Assembly: GCA_965224085.1 (NCBI GenBank)
Contig: CBDCYI010000004.1
Coordinates: forward strand, 1,248,001-1,312,000
Source: Candidatus Marinacidobacterales bacterium
GTDB taxonomy: Bacteria > Acidobacteriota > Vicinamibacteria > Marinacidobacterales > SMYC01
Reading direction: 5' to 3'
DNA: 64,000 nt
The first letter of the stretch is position 1; every line of letters begins with the position of its first letter. Positions 32,305-49,796 of this stretch are shown here, piece by piece. A program made the translations under genes and the position numbers. A model generated the notes under the pieces. That model saw only the letters and a program-made list of their open reading frames with translations, was not told the DNA's origin and searched no databases.

Positions 32305-34552
32305 ATGATGCGTTTACGTAGCCTGCTGGTAGCGTTGTTTCTCTATACCCTCCTCCTCTTCGCTTCCTTTTATCCCGAATCCTTCAAGCCGGCGGATACG
32401 ATCGCCTACATCGGCGACGCGCTGGAAAGCGTCTATCTCGTGGCCTGGAACGTTCATCAATTCTTCCGCTCGCCATTCGAGCTCTTCGAGGCGAATTTTC
32501 TCTACCCCAATCCCCGAGCGCTCGCATTCACCGATCACCGGCTCCTCCCCCTCTCTTCTGGTCGCGCCGGTAATCTGGATCTCTCGGAACCCGGTGCTTG
32601 CTTACAATGTCGCGTTGGCGCTCGGCTCGTTGCTGGCCGCTTTTGCCGCACGAAGCTTGGCGCGACAGCTGGGGGCGAACGATCTCGGAGCCTGGACGGC
32701 GGGAGCGCTCTACGCGTTTCACACCTACCAGATACACGAAGCTCCTCGGCTCAATATCATTTTTCATGGATTTCTACCCCTCGCCCTCGGGCAGTTGTTG
32801 CTCCTACTTTCGACGGGGAAACGAAAGCACGCTCTGGGAACGGGCGCGTTCATGCTCTTACAGGGTTTGAGCGCTAACTATCATCTGCTTTATGGGTCCT
32901 TGTTATTGGGCCTTACGTTTGTCGTCTTTCTCATCGCAAGACCGGGCCCGACCCTTCGTCGTCTCCCCAGCTTGTTCCTGGTCGCTTTTTTGGCCGGGAT
33001 GCTTTATTTTCCGTTTGCCTGGCCCTATCTCGAAAACTCCACCGCCCACGACTATCACCGCGAGCTACCGCGGGGCATCGACCTCCAGCACTATGTGACC
33101 ACTCGCCCGACGAATTTCGTGTACGGTCCCATGGGCGCCGAGTTTCGCCTCCAGCAGAGAGGGCCGCACTTCGTCGGGTTTGTTTCGCTCGCTCTGGGAT
33201 TGCTCGCCCTTGGGCTCGTGAGTCGACGTCAAAAAGAAGCATCGTCCGGGCTGTTGCCGGACAAGCTCTGGGTGCCGGCGGCGGCCGGTTTTTTTCTCCT
33301 CTTTCAGACGTTGGCCCTGGGAAGAGATATCGAAGCCTGGGGGATGACGCTCGGACCCGGACCTTATCGTATTTTGTATCACGTGGTGCCCGGCTTTCAG
33401 CTGGTGCGCATTCCCGAGTGGCTGAGCCTCCTCGCCATGCTGTTCCTCGCTCTGCTGGTGGCGGGGGCACTCAGCCGAATCAGCCGGGCCGGCTATCGGT
33501 CGCTCGGCGTGCTGCTCGCGGCCCTGGTTCCCCTCGAGCACCTGTCGACTATGCCGCATATCGATCGAATTCCGATTGGCGAGGATGTCCCAGCCGTCTA
33601 TCGATGGCTCGAGGGCGACCGGGCCCAGGCCATCGCCGAAGTACCGGTTCATGGCCAAGGGTTGGTCCGCAAGGAAACACTCGAGATGTACTTCTCGACC
33701 TATCACTACAAACCGCTCATCCATGGCTACACGGCTTTCCCTCCCGCCTTGTCCGGCTTGCTCCGAAAGATGGGCAAGGATTTCCCGTCCGAAGCCAGTC
33801 TGCAAGTTTTCCAGCGAGTTGGAGTAGATACGATTATTCTACACCGGGGTCGAGACGCGGAGCTCGATCGGCGTGTCCGTGATTGGGTCGAGGCAGGACG
33901 ATTGAGGCAAGAGGCCCGGTTCGCCGGGAGTCGGGCCAGGGTCTACGAGGGAACCGAAGACATCGTCTACCGGCTGGTGCCCGGCCCAGCTGTCGACCCG
34001 GCACCCTTCCCGGGAGGGCGTCGACTGCGAGCGGCGAACTTCCGCTACCGCACGAAAGTCGGCGATCCGGCCCCGGCCGCCGACGGCGATGTGACGACCG
34101 CCTGGGAAGTGCGACGGCCGCTGAACGGCGACGAGTTCTACGAGATCACCTTTGACGAAGCCCGTCCGGTGAGTGGCCTCGTGATGGTACTCGGCCGGAA
34201 CAGCGCTTTTCCCAATCGTTTCAAGATCGCCGGGCGGCAACCGAACGGTGAGTGGCTCTCTCTGCGCTGGTTCGACGCGGCCCATGCGCTACAACTTCTG
34301 GAATCTCTGAGGGCTTCCCCTCCTCGGCTGCGTTTGGGGTTCGATCTCGGAGGCCGGGAGCTCACCGGTTTACGGATCATGATAGAAGAGGGCGGGAAGA
34401 GCTTCTTCGGCTGGTCGATCCCGGAGATTGAGGTCCGGGTCCCGGACGCATCCCAGTCGGCTCTCTTACTCGGTGCCGCTCGGAGTCGGTCCGTCAAGCC
34501 GATAGATGATCCAATCCAGGTTCTCGTAGAGTCGAGGGAGCGGCGCGATTGA
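32305..34552 (+). CDS. YfhO-like (GT-C) polytopic membrane protein with C-terminal discoidin-like domain; one frameshift
   Basis: AWNVHQ, ANFLYP..LAFTDH, VRIPEW, GYTAF, ADGDVTTAW; removing one C from the run at 32546-32550 fuses ORFs 32305 and 32594. Confidence 0.72.
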
Positions 34553-34591
34553 AATTATGTCCTCGCTGGACCCACGGTGAAAGAACCCCGC

Positions 34592-34620
34592 TTGATATAT
34601 ATCTGATCAAGATATATAAT
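34592..34620 (+). promoter_or_regulatory. Sigma70 promoter with overlapping palindromic operator; probably a leaderless mRNA
   Basis: TTGATA-17 bp-TATAAT; perfect IR TATATATCT (34596-34604) / AGATATATA (34610-34618); ATG 6 nt after the -10 box with no SD. Confidence 0.8.
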
Positions 34621-34626
34621 AAATGT

Positions 34627-34854
34627 ATGAAACAGATATCTATTCATGTCGCGGAAGAGGAATACGAGGAGCTCAAGCTATTGGCGGCGACTCGACGCGA
34701 GCCCGTGGCTCAACTCATACGCAAAGCGATGCGAGCCTTTCTCGAGTCTGAGAGAGCGAGCGAATCGATGCGGGGCCTCCGGGCGCACGACAGTGGCAAT
34801 CTGCTCAGGAAATGGAGCCGAGACGAGATATACGACGAGATGCTCGACCGATGA
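34627..34854 (+). CDS. vapB: RHH/CopG antitoxin (VapB-type)
   Basis: MKQISIHV...AQLIRKAM, C-terminal SRDEIYD; ATGA overlap with the PIN gene. Confidence 0.82.
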   Translation: MKQISIHVAEEEYEELKLLAATRREPVAQLIRKAMRAFLESERASESMRGLRAHDSGNLLRKWSRDEIYDEMLDR

Positions 34855-35300
34855 GCCGCGACACGGTCGCGCTCGATACCGATGTGCTCGTTCATTGGTC
34901 CATGAGCGGGTGCGAGCATCATCGCGCCATGCGCCGTTGGGTTGACGCAGGCCTTGAGCGAGGACAACGCCTCGGGCTCACACACCAAGTGCTTTACGAG
35001 TTCATCCACATTGCTACCGATCCACGACGTTTTGAACGTCCCATGGCGATGCAGGCAGCCGTCGATTTCGTACGACGCCTCTGGACCGCGAGGGAGGTTG
35101 CACGACTGATTCCGCTGGTCGCCGTCGTGCCACGAGTTTGCGAGCTGGTCGAAACGTTTCAACTGGGTCGCAAGAGAGTCCTCGATACCGCGCTCGCAGC
35201 GACCATCGACGCGGCCGGTGTCACACGGATCGCAACCTTCAACTCGAGTGACTTTGCGGTCTTCCCTTTCTTGCAAGTCGAAGACCCGTCCACCGATTGA
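34851..35300 (+). CDS. vapC: PIN-domain VapC-type toxin
   Basis: ALDTDVL, QVLYEF, VLDTALAAT, ATFNSSDF. Confidence 0.88.
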   Translation: MSRDTVALDTDVLVHWSMSGCEHHRAMRRWVDAGLERGQRLGLTHQVLYEFIHIATDPRRFERPMAMQAAVDFVRRLWTAREVARLIPLVAVVPRVCELVETFQLGRKRVLDTALAATIDAAGVTRIATFNSSDFAVFPFLQVEDPSTD

Positions 35301-35320
35301 GTCGCTGCAAGTGACTCGGC

Positions 35321-35494
35321 ACTTATCCGCTCGCGGATTTCTTGACGAGAATTTGGGCGCTCAAGGACAATGTTTCAGCCTATGACGGCGCCTACGTGAG
35401 TCTCGCCGAGGCGCTCGGCGCCACTCTGTTGACTGGAGATCACCGACTGACCAAAGCCACGGGCACCCGAGCCGTTATCGAGCTACTCGAATAG
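35321..35494 (+). pseudogene. C-terminal remnant of a second, unrelated PIN/VapC gene
   Basis: Unlisted frame TYPLADFLTRIWALKDNVSAYDGAYVSLAEALGATLLTGDHRL; no start codon. Confidence 0.78.
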
Positions 35495-35737
35495 TCTCGA
35501 CACGTCAGCGTGGATCACCGAATCGGCGAGCGCCGAACGGAACACCCCCGTTCGCGTGAAGGACGTCTATTCGATGAAGAGCTTCACTTCGCCGCTTTCT
35601 TTCAGCGAAATAACCGTTTGGATGCCGGTCTGAATCTCTTCCTGTTTCAAGTGATGGGATGGACTCCTCCGCTGACATAGACGGCATCGATGTGCCAAAG
35701 TCAGTCGAAAGAACGCATCGAAAAAGGAGGAGTCCGA

Positions 35738-36772
35738 ATGAAAGATACGACGATCGCTGTGGGTCTTGCAAAGAACGTCTTCGAGATTGCCATCTCGCGC
35801 GAAGCGGGGAAGGTGTCCAAGCAACTCCGTGTGAGTCGACCCAAGTTGGTGTCGTTTTTTGCGAAACAGAGCGCTGCCACCGTGCTTCTTGAAGCCTGCG
35901 GCTCGGCTCACTTCTGGGCAAGGACGTTGCAACGGTTGGGACACGACGTCGTCCTGCTCCCACCTCACCTCGTAAGGCCGTATCGACGCGGGAGCAAGAA
36001 CGACCGCGCGGACACCAAAGCTTTGCTCGAGGCTTACCGGAACGAGGAGATTCTTTCGGTGCCCATCAAGTCCGTGCGCCAGCACACCCTCGCCGCGCTC
36101 CATCGCCTACGCTCAGGATGGCTCTCCACACGGACCGCACGCATCAATGCCGTACGCGGGATCCTGCGCGAGCTCGGACTCTTCATCCCCAAGGGCGCTC
36201 ACTTCGTCGTGCCCGCCATCTCCGAACTCGTCGAAGACGCTGATTCTGATTTGCCCGACGTGCTCCGTCCGCACCTGCGTGATGCGTGCTCCGAGATTCG
36301 AGAGCTCAAGGACAAGTGCGCTGGCATCGAGCACGAGCTCAAGGCGCTCGCCAAGCAGCTTCCTGAGGTGCAACGACTTCTCACCATTCCCGGCATCGGA
36401 CTTCTGACCGCGACCGCCATCGTCGGCTTCGTTGGGGATCTGCGCCGCTTCCCATCGGGACGCCGCTTCTCGAGTTACCTCGGCCTCGTTCCCAAAGAGA
36501 ACTCCAGTGGTGACATTCGCCGCCTCGGGCGCATCACCAAGCGTGGCGACTCCTACCTCCGTACGCTCCTCACGCAGGGCGGACGCGCCGTGCTCCGAGC
36601 GGCCAACGTCAGCAAGAGCCCGCCCGACAAGCTCCGCGCCTGGGCGCGGAAGGTCCACCGCTCGCGGGGACACAACAAAGCCGCGATTGCTGTCGCCAAC
36701 AAACTCGCCCGGATAGTCTGGGCCGTCTCCACCCGCGAGAGTGAATTCCAGTCGGTGCCCGCGGCCGCATAG
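35738..36772 (+). CDS. IS110/IS1111 recombinase; first DEDD aspartate reads as Gly
   Basis: VGLAK (expected DLAK), LEACG, KNDRAD, IPGIG, SYLGLVPKENSSG, ITKRGDSYLR, AVANKLAR; SD GGAGG. Confidence 0.92.
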   Translation: MKDTTIAVGLAKNVFEIAISREAGKVSKQLRVSRPKLVSFFAKQSAATVLLEACGSAHFWARTLQRLGHDVVLLPPHLVRPYRRGSKNDRADTKALLEAYRNEEILSVPIKSVRQHTLAALHRLRSGWLSTRTARINAVRGILRELGLFIPKGAHFVVPAISELVEDADSDLPDVLRPHLRDACSEIRELKDKCAGIEHELKALAKQLPEVQRLLTIPGIGLLTATAIVGFVGDLRRFPSGRRFSSYLGLVPKENSSGDIRRLGRITKRGDSYLRTLLTQGGRAVLRAANVSKSPPDKLRAWARKVHRSRGHNKAAIAVANKLARIVWAVSTRESEFQSVPAAA

Positions 36773-36829
36773 AGGCTCCACTTTCGTGTTTTCCTTCTTC
36801 CCTTCCAACAGAGGCTGCGACGATACCCA

Positions 36830-37000
36830 TCCAACTGATGGCGTACCGGTCGGACCGGCGCGGGGTCAAGCCGATAGCAACACTGGCCCTCAGAGGTCGC
36901 TCAAAGTGATTGGCTCCTCGCGCGCGGATTTTCCGTCATGGCCCGGAGCACCCAAGACGCTCCTCACTGAGGCCGTAGATATGTTTGCAGTCTGACCCAC
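36830..37000 (+). ncRNA. Predicted bridge/seek RNA of the IS1111-type element (boundaries approximate)
   Basis: Two stem-flanked internal loops: AGCAAC and AAGT match the target; TTCCGTCAT and AGATATGT match the donor junction. Confidence 0.75.
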
Positions 37001-37099
37001 TCGTCACCGATTTGGACGAGCAGCTCTGAGGAAGACTTTTTTGAGAAAGGTGTTGATTGAGGAGTCCAGATATGTTGCTTGATCCGCGGCTTGGCGTCT

Positions 37100-39088
37100 T
37101 CATGGCTCTCCCGTGACTTGATCGCGAGGGAGGGCGAACGCGGTAAGCTTCGCGCCCTCACCGACTCCGTTCGCGATGACGACATATTGCTTGCCCGAAC
37201 GGCTGAGATAGGTCATGGGATTGGCGTTGCCCCGCTGCCCCAAGTCTCCTTCCCAGAGCTCCTCACCCGTCGCCTTGTCGAACGCGTAGAGTGTCGTACC
37301 ACCGCCGGTCAGGAACACCAGCCCGCCGCCGGTCACGATGGGGCCCGGCGCGCCGACGACTCCGAGCCGCTCGGGAAGTTCGATACCCCGAAGCGCTGGA
37401 TGGTTGCGCACTCGCGGCATGTCGCCCACCGGCACCTGCCAGAGGTGCTCTCCCGTGTCAAGATCGATCGCGGTCAATGTGCCGTAAGGCGGCTTGTGGA
37501 TGGGCAGCCCGTTTCGGAAGCTCAGACCCCGGCGTGCTCGGTCGATTTCGTAGTCGCCCTCGGTTCGGGCCGGATTCGCTTCCCTGATCGCGAGAAGGCT
37601 GGGCGTGTTGGAAGCTTTCACGTAAAGCACTCCAGTGTCTGGATCCGCGGCGGCACCACCCCAGTTCGCCCCGCCCACGACTCCCGGCATGATGATCGTG
37701 CCTTCTTGGGACGGCGGAGCGTACAGGGGACCGTAGTGGTAGTTCTTGATGAGCTCCTGCGCTTCGGCCTCGAGCTCGGGTGTAAAGTCGATGAGCTCGT
37801 CCTCGGTAAAACCTTGTCGAGCGAACGCGAGGGGTTTCGTGGGAAACGGCTGCGTCGGGGAGCTCTGCTCCCCAGGCACGTCGCTCTGCAGAACCGGACG
37901 CTCCTCGATCGGCCACACGGGCTTTCCGCTCACGCGGTCGAAGACATAAACGAACCCCATCTTCGAGGGAGCGGCCACAGCGTCGATGGTCCGCCCGTTC
38001 ACTTCGATCGTAAGGAGCGTCGGCGGTGAGCCGAGGTCGTAGTCCCACAGCCCGTGGTGCACTGCCTGAAAGTGCCAGAGGTGCCGGCCGCTGCTCGCGT
38101 CCAGACAAAGGAGGCTTTCGGCGAACAAGTTGTCCCCTTTGCGGTGCCCCCCGTAATAGTCGTTGCTCGGCGTCCCCACGGGGAGATAGAGAAGGCCCCT
38201 AGTCTCGTCCAGCGTGAACGGAGCCCAGACGTTGGTGTGCCCCGTGTAGCGCCACGAGCCGTCCTCCCAGGTCTCGTTGCCGAACTCTCCGTCCTGCGGG
38301 ATGAGATTGAAGCTCCACGCCAGCTCCCCGGTGTGGACGTCGAAAGCCATGACGTTCCCTGGAGGATCCCGGCGGTAGACAAAACCGTCCCACACGCCGT
38401 TTCCGAGGATAACGAGATCTTCGTAAACGACCGGCGGTGACGTCTGTGTGTAGTGGAGGCGGTTGGTGTGCCACGTCGCGTGCTCGGTGAGATCGATTTC
38501 CCCTCGATGACCGAAGCTTCGAATCGGCTCACCGGTCGACGCATCGAGAGCGATCAAGCGCCATCGGCTGTTGAGGAAGATGCGTCGCTCGTTCCCGCGC
38601 GTCCAGGCCGCCACGCCGCGATGGACGAATCCCATTCCGTTCGGCACTCGGCCCCAATCATAGGCCCGCGGATCGTAACTCCAGATTTCTTCCCCGGTAT
38701 CGCTATCGAGTGCCACGACCCGGTTGTAAGGAGTACTGAGATACATCACGTCTTCCAGGACGAGGGGTGTCGCTTCGAAGCCTGCCGGCCGGACGGCCTG
38801 CCCGGGAATCGGCTGCTGGGGCCCAGGAATCGGCTTCTCTCCCGTGTCCCACGTCCAAGCGACTTCGAGACTGCTGACGTTCTCACGGTTGATCTGGGTG
38901 AGAGGAGAGTATTTCTTGCCGCCCGCATCTCCTCCGAAGACGGGCCAATCGCCCTCTTCCACACTGGCGCGCGGCGCGGCGCAGGCCGCGAGCGTGCCGG
39001 TCAGAACCCAGAAGAGCGGTCTTTTTAATCGCGAGCGTAGATTCCAAGTTACGGCGTTCCTCGTTCGGTCTTTGGCATCGACAGACAT
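37100..39088 (-). CDS. PQQ-dependent dehydrogenase (quinoprotein glucose dehydrogenase type), lipoprotein
   Basis: LAAC lipobox; YSPLTQIN, FEATPL, HRGVA, QAVHHGLWDYD, GANWGG, KPPYG, ANPMTY. Confidence 0.92.
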   Translation of the reverse strand: MSVDAKDRTRNAVTWNLRSRLKRPLFWVLTGTLAACAAPRASVEEGDWPVFGGDAGGKKYSPLTQINRENVSSLEVAWTWDTGEKPIPGPQQPIPGQAVRPAGFEATPLVLEDVMYLSTPYNRVVALDSDTGEEIWSYDPRAYDWGRVPNGMGFVHRGVAAWTRGNERRIFLNSRWRLIALDASTGEPIRSFGHRGEIDLTEHATWHTNRLHYTQTSPPVVYEDLVILGNGVWDGFVYRRDPPGNVMAFDVHTGELAWSFNLIPQDGEFGNETWEDGSWRYTGHTNVWAPFTLDETRGLLYLPVGTPSNDYYGGHRKGDNLFAESLLCLDASSGRHLWHFQAVHHGLWDYDLGSPPTLLTIEVNGRTIDAVAAPSKMGFVYVFDRVSGKPVWPIEERPVLQSDVPGEQSSPTQPFPTKPLAFARQGFTEDELIDFTPELEAEAQELIKNYHYGPLYAPPSQEGTIIMPGVVGGANWGGAAADPDTGVLYVKASNTPSLLAIREANPARTEGDYEIDRARRGLSFRNGLPIHKPPYGTLTAIDLDTGEHLWQVPVGDMPRVRNHPALRGIELPERLGVVGAPGPIVTGGGLVFLTGGGTTLYAFDKATGEELWEGDLGQRGNANPMTYLSRSGKQYVVIANGVGEGAKLTAFALPRDQVTGEP

Positions 39089-39089
39089 G

Positions 39090-39583
39090 TTAACGGCCTC
39101 TGAGCCCGGACCGGAGGCGGAGAGCCTGTTTCCTTCCTTCCGCCGCATCCGCTACGGGAGCATCTTCCCATTGGTAGGTTCGCTCGTTGGCGTATTCTTC
39201 GAACCATTCCAGCTCCGCGTTCATCTTGAACAGCTGATGACGTAGCTCCCTCCAGCCGTGCGGCTCCCTTGGCGCGATGTAGAGACGCGTTGGAACCCCG
39301 TTTGCTTTGAGCGCCCGGTACAGCTCCACCGATCGGGGCGACGGGACGCGGACGTCTTTCTCGCCCACCAGGATTAGAATCGGCGTCTTGATCTTCGCGA
39401 CGTCCTTTAACGGGGACTGCTCCCAGTAGAGATCGGTCGGCGCATCTTTCTGCCAAGGAGTACCTCGAAACCAGGGTGTGCGGTAATAGCGCACGTCACT
39501 CTGCGCGTACATGGACACGAAGTTCACGATGCCGGCCCCCGAAGAAGCGGCCTTGAAACGATCGGTCATGGTAAGAGCCGCTC
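39090..39583 (-). pseudogene. C-terminal remnant of an S9 peptidase
   Basis: TDRFKAAS, SPL, GEKDVRVP, PREPHG; the nucleophile GxSxG and everything upstream are missing. Confidence 0.8.
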
Positions 39584-48464: not shown

Positions 48465-49796
48465 TCAATTCTCCGAAATCCGGTACAGGTGACGATAGCC
48501 CCGGAGATACATCTCGTCACCGACGATCGCGGGAGACGCGTCGAAGCCGTCGTCCAGGGAGTTCGTTGCGAGGATCTCGAGCTCGGGGCCATTGTCGAGA
48601 ACGAGTGCGTTGCCGTCGCGGCCGAGGATGTAGACACGGCCGTTCACCCCGACGGGCGACGAGTAGATCTCGTAAATGCCTTCGAGCCGTACCGGACCGT
48701 AATGCGCTTCGCCCGTCTTCGCGTCGCGAGCGGTCAGGATTCCGTTGTTGCTCTTCACGAGATACAGGATGTCCTCGTAAAGAAGAGGAGAGGGGACATA
48801 GGGTGTATCCCGGTCGACTTGCCAGAGAATGGCCGAGGTGTCCGTGATGTCGCCTTTGGCCTCGGATAAACGAGCGGCGAAAGCGGCGTTGCCGCGAAAG
48901 CCGCTCGTAACGTACACGATACCGTCCTTTTCGACGGGCGACGGGATGGCGTTCAAGGTGAGACCCGGTCCGGACCAGACGATCTCGCCGGTCTCCAAGT
49001 CGTAGCTCGTCACGTTCTTCGTTCCTGTGGCGATGACTTGAGAACGGCCGGCGTGATCGACGACGAGGGGCGTGCCCCAAGAGCTGACTTCGTCGCGAGC
49101 TTGGTGCCAAACCTCCTCGCCGCTGTTCTTGTCGAGCGCGGCGATGAAAGACTCGCGTTCGTGGTCCCATTGGACGACGACGACGTCTCCATGAAGCGCC
49201 GGTGACGCGCCTTCGCCGAAGCCGCCCCGCGTGTACAAGTCGCCGAAATCTTTGCTCCACTTCAAGTTGCCTTCCATGTCATAGGCGTAGAGGCCCCAGG
49301 AGTTGAAATAAGCGAGAAGGATCTCGCCGTCGGTCATGGCGGAGGCGGAAGCGTAGCTGTTATTGGCTTGCTTGCCGTCGTGTGGCATGGCTTTCGTCGC
49401 GGTCCGCTCCCAAGCGAGGCTCCCGTCGGCGCGGTTCAGAACGAGAAGCTTGAACTCCTGCTCGATCGATGTGGGCGGCGGCCCGCCGCGGCGACGCCTT
49501 TGCCCTTGCGGCGCGTTCGGGTTCGCGTGCGGCGCCAGCGGAGCGACAGATCCGTCGGTCGGAATCGCCGTCAAGATGTAGAGGTGCTCGCCCCAAATGA
49601 TGGGCGTCGAAGAGCCCTGGCCCGGCAGCGCGACTTTCCACTTTACGTTTTTTTCCTCGCTCCACTCGATGGGTGGGTTGGCGTCCTTCGCGATCCCGTC
49701 CATGCGCGAGCCTCGCCAACGCGTCCAATTGCCGTCCTCTGAAAAAAGCGTCGTCGCCACGAAACAGAGACAGATGCCAATGCCTAGCCTTTTCAT
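48465..49796 (-). CDS. Secreted PQQ-like beta-propeller protein
   Basis: Signal peptide, NWTRWRG, GSSTPIIWG, GEGASP, SWGTP, YVPSPL, YSSPV, ASPAI. Confidence 0.88.
   Translation of the reverse strand: MKRLGIGICLCFVATTLFSEDGNWTRWRGSRMDGIAKDANPPIEWSEEKNVKWKVALPGQGSSTPIIWGEHLYILTAIPTDGSVAPLAPHANPNAPQGQRRRRGGPPPTSIEQEFKLLVLNRADGSLAWERTATKAMPHDGKQANNSYASASAMTDGEILLAYFNSWGLYAYDMEGNLKWSKDFGDLYTRGGFGEGASPALHGDVVVVQWDHERESFIAALDKNSGEEVWHQARDEVSSWGTPLVVDHAGRSQVIATGTKNVTSYDLETGEIVWSGPGLTLNAIPSPVEKDGIVYVTSGFRGNAAFAARLSEAKGDITDTSAILWQVDRDTPYVPSPLLYEDILYLVKSNNGILTARDAKTGEAHYGPVRLEGIYEIYSSPVGVNGRVYILGRDGNALVLDNGPELEILATNSLDDGFDASPAIVGDEMYLRGYRHLYRISEN

Follow-up and report, generated by a model that had tools for sequence, protein, structure and literature searches.

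The closest known counterparts of the element reported here, ISEc11, ISKpn4, ISPa11 and ISPst6, are presented in PMC11187229 as insertion sequences (ISs) encoding a transposase of 330-350 amino acids (aa) with DEDD and PF02371 domains, flanked by asymmetric subterminal repeats and followed by a long downstream non-coding region. The RNA matches of these elements occur in the IS1111 guide order, in which the top-strand match of the seekRNA lies 5′ of the bottom-strand match, and they overlap in the target. IS621 (PMC11208160, PMC11208158) was characterized by two guide pairs, half-sites read on one strand, a 2-nt core, and a DEDD plus Ser site, and bridge RNAs were predicted in 93% of the catalogued IS1111 elements by Durrant et al. 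(PMC11208160). Moreover, the IS110-family element ISPpu9 of Pseudomonas putida carries a small RNA gene, Ssr9, downstream of its transposase, together with extra solo copies of this RNA (PMC12288879). In the 64-kb window analyzed here, which is the whole 64,000-nt stretch of a Candidatus Marinacidobacterales contig, an IS110-family, IS1111-group insertion sequence is placed at approximately 35652-37074. With a probability of roughly 0.8, this element is a bridge/seek RNA-guided IS1111-type system with a TG core and both donor and target guides, as judged from sequence comparison. It represents a further natural IS1111-type system with legible guides, the mechanism itself having been in print since 2024.

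The window element shares with the ISEc11 group and with IS621 the features listed above for each of them. It differs from the ISEc11 group in its target, in its distant clade (an Acidobacteriota-type host), and in the replacement of the first catalytic aspartate by glycine at codon 9 of the transposase (D9G); guides for the donor ends are also evident in it. In contrast to IS621, whose RNA occupies the left end ahead of the gene, the window element carries its RNA behind the gene, in the right end; it also has the opposite guide order, long subterminal repeats and a core that would be TG (YG) instead of CT, and its right donor guide (RDG) pairs, in a helix named P5, with a segment of the RNA that mimics the left end. 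ISPpu9 has another host and targets repetitive extragenic palindromic (REP) sequences, while its solo RNA copies can be compared with the tandem repeats of locus L001, described below.

The relatives used for comparison were obtained by a protein search that returned at least 6801 homologues at E ≤ 1e-20 (8000 scored). From the 120 homologues listed, 21 were aligned with the window protein, and the scan of genome contigs with this alignment gave 79 loci. Four of them (L001-L004) belong to one Acidobacteriota-type assembly and carry copies 93% identical in DNA to the window element, and the remaining loci, from Acidobacteriota, Gemmatimonadota, Proteobacteria and others, have 40-62% protein identity.

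Downstream of the transposase stop codon (36772), 300 nt devoid of a convincing open reading frame (ORF) extend to the right end at 37072. The RNA predicted in this region has about 180 nt, lies 3′ of the transposase gene on the same strand, and comprises the following parts:

36814-36992, + strand: bridge/seek RNA domain, from the RNAalifold consensus, closed by helix P0 (36814-36818 / 36987-36991).
36836-36841, + strand: 5′ strand of P5, UGAUGG, pairing with 36933-36938 inside the right donor guide.
36869-36915, + strand: target-binding arm, made of P3 (36869-36875 / 36909-36915) and the P4 hairpin (36884-36888 / 36895-36899), with the guides in the internal loop between them.
36876-36883, + strand: right target guide (RTG), AGCAACAC, the complement of G-TG-TTGCT in the top strand.
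36900-36908, + strand: left target guide (LTG), CUCAAAGUG, whose core-proximal AAGUG (36904-36908) equals AAG plus TG.
36931-36939, + strand: right donor guide, UUCCGUCAU, pairing with A-TG-ATGGGA of the joined ends through 2 G:U/G:T wobbles.
36939-36975, + strand: donor arm, made of P6 (36939-36943 / 36971-36975) and P7 (36945-36949 / 36959-36963).
36977-36983, + strand: left donor guide (LDG), AGAUAUG, which repeats the right end AGATA and the core TG in sense orientation.

The structure of this RNA was found to be conserved far beyond the closest relatives. The seven helices were written from an alignment of 14 diverse hand-picked relatives, in which 91.9% of the cells were paired and 14/39 pairs presented double (compensatory) changes; none of 500 shuffles reached any of the four measures, and slid partners paired in only 29-49%. 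Searched against 80 sources, the covariance model gave 90 matches, every one of them 3′ of the transposase gene and on its strand; 77 sources had a match (L004, L043 and L050 had none) and the window exactly one, at 36829-36996, whose 161.1 bits include the effect of the window sequence having been in the model seed. Among these 90 matches (75 distinct), 89.1% of the cells were paired and 33/39 pairs were compensatory, in an alignment fitted to the covariance model. RNAalifold, applied to a longer alignment, independently recovered P0 and P2-P6. Moreover, DNA identity over 36830-37000 remains at 75-77% in loci with a protein identity of only about 57%, and the conserved G:U pairs occur on the transposase strand only, which agrees with an RNA in the gene sense. 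P5 itself was 93% paired, with compensatory changes at 5/6 pairs, one of them split between CG (38) and GC (35). At the beginning of the non-coding region, upstream of P0, a pyrimidine-rich segment with repeated CTTCC is located at 36786-36809.

The guides of the relatives were compared with their own flanks in a set of 63 non-redundant elements, reached from the 90 RNA matches through 74 that were anchored on the conserved repeat-core motif and 70 whose flanks had 20 nt or more; the 16/90 matches without an anchor were left out. An automatic inverted-repeat finder, which chose wrong repeats in about a dozen loci, was replaced by this motif anchor. Both sides of the P3/P4 internal loop, the 5′ side with AGCAACAC and the 3′ side with CUCAAAGUG, were hypervariable among relatives, and LTG stops directly before the P3 3′ strand in the window as in all relatives. 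The mean exact run between RTG and the element's own right flank was 5.98 nt, against 3.28 ± 0.13 after permutation of the flanks (maximum 3.75, 1000 permutations), and that between LTG and the left flank was 4.44 nt, against 2.79 ± 0.12 (maximum 3.19, 1000 permutations). In the window, LTG with a 1-nt bulge also matches TCAAGTG.

The donor guides, placed either side of the base of the P6/P7 arm, were assessed over 43 distinct combinations among 72. Identity between LDG and the right end was 6.51/8, against 5.20 ± 0.12 permuted, and Watson-Crick pairing between RDG and the left end was 5.00/6, against 4.58 ± 0.09, with 0/2000 permutations as high in either case. LDG followed the right-end variants across subfamilies, since TACCCG, TACACG, TGTACG, TCTATG and TATACG were each found with a matching guide. 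Similarly, the left end GGGA of the window element and GGAA of its 93% relatives go with the guides CCGUC and CCAUC, respectively, and the RDG pairing that contains wobbles in the window is perfect in those relatives. Therefore, the bridge RNA/seekRNA reading is supported by the covariation of the RNA and by guides that track their own flanks and ends beyond all permutations.

A preliminary description of this DNA had already proposed an IS1111-type element whose downstream RNA holds guides for the target and the joined ends, a proposal now sustained by Pfam domains, repeats, covariation and permutation tests. The strings on which it relied, AGCAAC (36876-36881), AAGT (36904-36907), TTCCGTCAT (36931-36939) and AGATATGT (36977-36984), are present at these positions, its stem AGCCGAT (36869-36875) / ATTGGCT (36909-36915) corresponds to P3, and its observation of one guide order in both pairs (RTG before LTG, RDG before LDG) was confirmed. 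It had enclosed each pair in a loop, which holds for the target guides in the P3/P4 internal loop, whereas in the second pair TTCCGTCAT is largely a P5 strand facing 36836-36841. The TG register changes the extents of the guides to AGCAACAC for RTG, AAGTG for LTG and AGATATG for LDG. The means of verification it had named included a covariance model from homologs combined with guide/target covariation, which gave the compensatory pairs and unreached permutations reported above, and folding: the single-sequence minimum-free-energy fold is ordinary (z = -1.06, 15/100 shuffles as good), and it is across relatives that the structure is conserved.

The ends, flanks and coding region of the element, from left to right, are as follows:

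35645-35651, + strand: left target half (LT), TTTCAAG, which is flanking DNA in the TG register; the LTG sequence AAGTG matches its AAG plus TG.
35652-35653, + strand: left core copy TG, with TG at the homologous position in 51/63 relatives and in line with the 7-bp left extension rule.
35654-35659, + strand: left-end extension ATGGGA (right donor half, RD), pairing with RDG at 36931-36938; end and guide covary.
35660-35669, + strand: left subterminal inverted repeat TGGACTCCTC, whose 10 nt are all complementary to 37059-37068, with its motif kept in relatives.
35726-35735, + strand: third, inverted copy of the repeat, GGAGGAGTCC, overlapping the ribosome-binding site; 10 nt, 100% complementary, 55 nt apart.
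35738-36772, + strand: transposase gene, 344 aa, with DEDD/RuvC-like and Tnp domains (Pfam).
37053-37058, + strand: TTGATT, just inside the right repeat, candidate -35 half of a junction promoter.
37059-37068, + strand: right subterminal inverted repeat GAGGAGTCCA, perfect partner of 35660-35669.
37069-37072, + strand: right-end extension GATA (left donor half, LD), of (G/T)ATA type in relatives and copied in LDG.
37073-37074, + strand: right core copy TG, YG in 50/63 relatives (CG 32, TG 18).
37075-37079, + strand: right target half (RT), TTGCT, flanking DNA complementary to RTG.

The element thus delimited has about 1421 bp (35652-37072), followed by the second core copy at 37073-37074, and is organized as a 6-7-nt extension (T)GATGGGA, the repeat, a leader, the ORF, the 300-nt non-coding region, the inverted repeat and GATA. 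Homology to the 93% identical copies begins at 35647 on the left (L001-L003) and ends at 37079 on the right. The hallmarks given for the IS1111 group are protein length, subterminal repeats of 7-17 bp (in most cases 11-13 bp) that are extended by 7 bp on the left and 3 bp on the right, a GL-P----S(T)G motif, and a long non-coding region downstream of the gene (PMC11187229). The transposase exceeded the Pfam cut-offs for PF01548 (38.4 bits, cut-off 29) and PF02371 (90.5 bits) and presents GLVPKENSSG at residues 249-258, and the downstream non-coding region is longer than the upstream one, with 86 nt between the left edge and the ATG. Membership in the IS1111 group follows from the Pfam domains, the 344-aa length with the GL-P----SG motif, the 10-nt subterminal repeat and the 300-nt non-coding region, and the element and its bridge/seek RNA agree with this group wherever its hallmarks could be applied.

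The junctions, ..TTTCAAGTGATGGGA.. on the left and ..CCAGATATGTTGCTT.. on the right, read AAG-T-G-ATG and ATA-T-G-TTG around the core, so that GT and TG are both common to the two sides, and the empty sites of the two registers differ by 2 nt. The core dinucleotide is quite probably TG (35652-3 / 37073-4), a register preferred because of the homologous position in relatives, the guide lengths, the published end rule and the partner arm of L001. TG and YG prevail at the left and right positions of the 63 relatives, as listed above, and LTG ends in CG or TG immediately before the P3 3′ strand in 62/63 of them, the window LTG ending in ..AAGUG before AUUGGCU. In the TG register, the target guides match 8 and 5 nt and have GTG in common. 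With the family repeat ATGGAC../..GTCCAT as the starting point, the extensions become TGATGGG and ATA, which fit the published 7/3 rule in the TG register only; the same rule applied to the 10-nt repeat of this copy leads to no shared core. In L001, the IS is inserted into one of the two arms of an inverted-repeat element and the second arm is uninterrupted; rebuilt in the TG register, the interrupted arm has 23/26 identities with its partner (global alignment score 19, against 12 for GT). Moreover, two intact arms read ..TCAA(A)GTGTTGG.., containing the left-target guide sequence. The predicted target would probably be TTTCAAG-TG-TTGCTT and the predicted circle junction ..CCAGATA-TG-ATGGGA.., replacing the GT core, the 13-nt empty site and the GT circle junction of the preliminary description with a better fitting register and a target 2 nt longer. 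Two other registers were discarded: an 'AT' core in the conserved ends (LF -6 / RF 2, identical in 43/59) is conserved IS sequence that the guides would not abut, and 'GA' (24/59) is unfit for the window (A vs T). An uninterrupted target was found in neither register in the fetched loci, and the junctions of the tandem partial copies of L001 gave no clean assignment to either register.

Several observations weigh against a guided element with a TG core, and the first of them concern the register, which was deduced indirectly rather than read from an empty site or a circle junction. A GT core (35651-2 / 37074-5), with the same element and mechanism, the target TTTCAA-GT-TGCTT, the circle junction AGATAT-GT-GATGGGA and the uninterrupted allele ..TTTCAAGTTGCTT.. 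to be expected, is unlikely. GT is also common to both junctions, the exact match of LDG is then 8 nt long (P = 0.010), against 7 nt in the TG register, and the summed match score is 29, equal to that of TG. It is opposed by target guides reduced to 6 and 4 nt, next to which some guide bases are left without explanation, by a core one base off its place relative to P3 and the subterminal repeat in the 63 relatives, by end extensions of 8/4 or 6/6 instead of the published 7/3, and by a rebuilt L001 arm that needs a 2-nt gap (19/26 identities). A minus-strand ORF of 37 aa that the IS would interrupt was considered and set aside: it exists in the GT register only, and the TG register stops it after 11 codons. 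Furthermore, 26/63 relatives have TG at the left junction and CG at the right one, which a model of identical cores leaves unexplained. The guides reproduce this TG-left/CG-right asymmetry, as RDG reads T at the first core base in most relatives and the other three guides read C; the window element has TG throughout.

Other adverse observations concern the donor guides. RDG is mostly buried in P5 (36933-36938 with 36836-36841), the low diversity of left ends and RDGs made the effect size of its test small, and in the proteobacterial relatives the complementarity of RDG to the core G is lost (left-end position 2, G-G in 10/31) and P5 persists through a compensatory change (alignment pair 9/219); the same loss of complementarity marks the swapped-pair subfamily. 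The apparent guide signal may, therefore, arise in part from RNA structure. In an alternative reading, the RNA guides the target only, as a short seekRNA over P3/P4, while the ends are read by the protein via the subterminal repeats and the apparent donor guides are structural (a P5 strand and a conserved 3′ tail). In the seekRNA section of Siddiquee et al. (PMC11187229), purified seekRNAs of 82-96 nt are described with target matches alone, in the discussion of that paper what binds the IS ends is stated as unknown, and P5 is a true helix with compensatory changes. Nevertheless, this alternative is very improbable in view of the tracking of right-end variants by LDG across subfamilies (TACCCG, TACACG, TGTACG, TCTATG, TATACG), of left-end position 7, which lies outside P5 and still pairs with the guide base (guide C faces G in 6/7, guide U faces A or G in 19/23), and of the donor loops predicted in IS1111 right ends by Durrant et al. 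(PMC11208160).

The remaining adverse observations come from the window itself. In 2000 dinucleotide shuffles of 36773-37030, in which the longest matches to the four half-sites were summed, the observed score of 29 compared with a shuffle mean of 23.8 (P = 0.0145 for TG and 0.019 for GT). Taken singly, the P values were 0.0095 (TG) and 0.28 (GT) for the right-target guide, 0.082 (TG) and 0.010 (GT) for the left-donor guide, 0.31 (TG) and 0.15 (GT) for the right-donor guide, and approximately 0.8, i.e. chance level, for the left-target guide. The guide matches of the window alone barely exceed chance, with the registers tied at 29, and are only suggestive. No relevant match was found with the Rfam 15 models over 35000-37800 (E up to 10), and the promoter scan of the linear element revealed nothing promoter-like; a terminator scan detected one terminator-like site, inside the gene and on the wrong strand. 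Coincidental matches over a mere 3′ untranslated region or terminator, to which the weak window-only statistics, the ordinary fold (z = -1.06) and the lack of an Rfam match would be agreeable, are hardly credible given 33/39 compensatory pairs and a guide/flank covariation never reached by permutation.

Concerning the transposase, the likely start is the ATG at 35738, with AGGAGGA ahead of it. The DEDD domain is present, yet the catalytic tetrad is incomplete, as codon 9 (35762-35764) is GGT and encodes Gly where the relatives carry the first catalytic Asp. E52, D89 and D92 were unchanged across the 22 aligned sequences, while position 9 is D in 19, E in one and G in one of the 21 others, and Gly-9 is shared by one other database protein, P0013; the 99% identical cluster representative and the 93% DNA relatives have Asp-9. 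A profile of the transposase alignment matched D9/E52/D89/D92 to the DEDD residues of IS621, with an N-terminal stretch that is weak alone. A single-protein phmmer search against the PDB aligned the C-terminal domain only, and the N-terminus was matched just by the profile search. Mutation of D11 in IS621 abolished recombination (PMC11208158), and this copy is, therefore, probably non-autonomous and would be movable only in trans by intact paralogues. Its ends and RNA look intact despite D9G, a substitution at the first DEDD residue owing to which this copy, called a readable natural ortholog in the preliminary description, is not ready for use.

The insertion sites of the relatives provide further context. 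A complete gene for a PQQ-dependent dehydrogenase (37100-39148) is encoded on the strand opposite to the IS, and the element of the window lies about 25 bp beyond its stop codon, in intergenic DNA. No further copies or targets were found within the 64-kb window, where near matches occur only at chance level; for example, the unoccupied 49261-49272, TTCAAGTTGCCT, is 11/12 identical to the GT-register empty target, with 0.74 such matches expected. The copies of L001-L004 are all bordered by TCAAG-TG at their left end and by TG-TTGCT at their right end; their flanks are mutual repeats and, thus, represent few independent events with regard to the site- and orientation-specific insertion without target duplication that is listed for the IS1111 group. 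These 93% copies lie in the terminal inverted repeat of another, uncharacterised repeated element, with the same 19-nt left flank corresponding to the tip of this inverted-repeat element, itself repeated in that genome (motif sites at L001:192-211 and 2927-2946; L002:1160-1245 and 2884-2912; L004:2900). In L002 and L003, a 16-nt piece of the tip is tandemly duplicated beside the IS. The window site only resembles the tip motif (16/26, including CTTCC at the same distance), and the CTTCC pentamer, also seen at the start of the non-coding region, recurs in the target flank at a distance of 9 nt to the left of the core.

In L001 (1389-2727), three partial repeats stand in tandem behind a full element, each with the RNA gene and the right end (four RNA copies in 1.3 kb). 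They are joined to element-internal sites, namely ATTGCT in the 3′-terminal part of the gene and CGTGTTTT where the non-coding region begins. These repeats look like self-directed half-matching insertions and may be compared with the half-match insertions of a preprint (10.64898/2026.08.31.748434). Two RNA copies in the same orientation, often whole elements, occur within 7 kb in L005, L029, L030, L037, L038, L048, L049, L054, L061 and L074, which suggests frequent insertion beside an existing copy or into clustered repeats.

RNA expression, protein binding and chemistry are predicted for this element, by analogy with IS621 and ISEc11. Read-through transcription or a circle-junction promoter would produce the transposase mRNA and the RNA downstream; TTGATT is a possible -35 half of a promoter formed on circularisation, and TTGA[CT] is found at the same place, just inside the right repeat, in 22/62 relatives. 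The P3/P4 arm would present the target guides, AGCAACAC to the top strand of the core and right target and AAGUG to the bottom strand of the left target and core. The donor guides at the P6/P7 base would likewise address the joined ends, UUCCGUCAU on the top strand of the core and left IS end and AGAUAUG on the bottom strand of the right IS end and core. Transposase tetramers loaded with the RNA would then recombine the circularised element with a matching target, the four guides pairing with the two half-sites each of target and donor and the strands being exchanged at the 2-nt core. The third repeat copy (35726-35735) could form a perfect 10-nt hairpin with 35661-35670, a strict 8-nt version of which adjoins the start codon in 14/62 relatives, and such a hairpin over the ribosome-binding site could silence the translation of transcripts coming from outside.

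Beyond this scheme, the 5′ strand of P5 (36836-36841) has the sequence of the element's own left end, and this helix could either play a structural role or mask RDG, in the latter case being released by donor DNA. A more speculative, rather doubtful proposal combines two points: the internal left-end copy would mask RDG until donor DNA displaces it, and the guides would encode a fixed asymmetry of the first core base. In the portions of the IS110/IS1111 literature that were searched, no mention of a P5-type masking helix or of the T/C core asymmetry was found; both may be published elsewhere.

Among the neighboring features, a ribbon-helix-helix gene overlapping a PIN-domain gene (34549-35300) constitutes a VapB/VapC-like toxin-antitoxin pair according to Pfam, which is followed by a 50-aa ORF (35342-35494).

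Close relatives of the element may already stand in the supplementary tables of PMC11208160 and PMC11187229. The covariance model and alignment recognise the RNA in about 80 diverse elements, and the locus serves as a worked example of a core register that is unreadable from one copy alone and needs family comparison. For the annotation of this genome, the analysis explains a 1.4-kb insertion beside the PQQ dehydrogenase gene and flags this copy as probably non-autonomous. The self-masking helix P5 and the guide-encoded T/C core asymmetry are leads for specialists: if the proposal joining them were true, reading of the donor would involve a T.G heteroduplex or proceed one strand at a time, as with a circle of single-stranded DNA, and the guides would offer a natural read-out of the first-exchanged strand in IS1111-type recombination, with a polarity possibly opposite to that of IS621.

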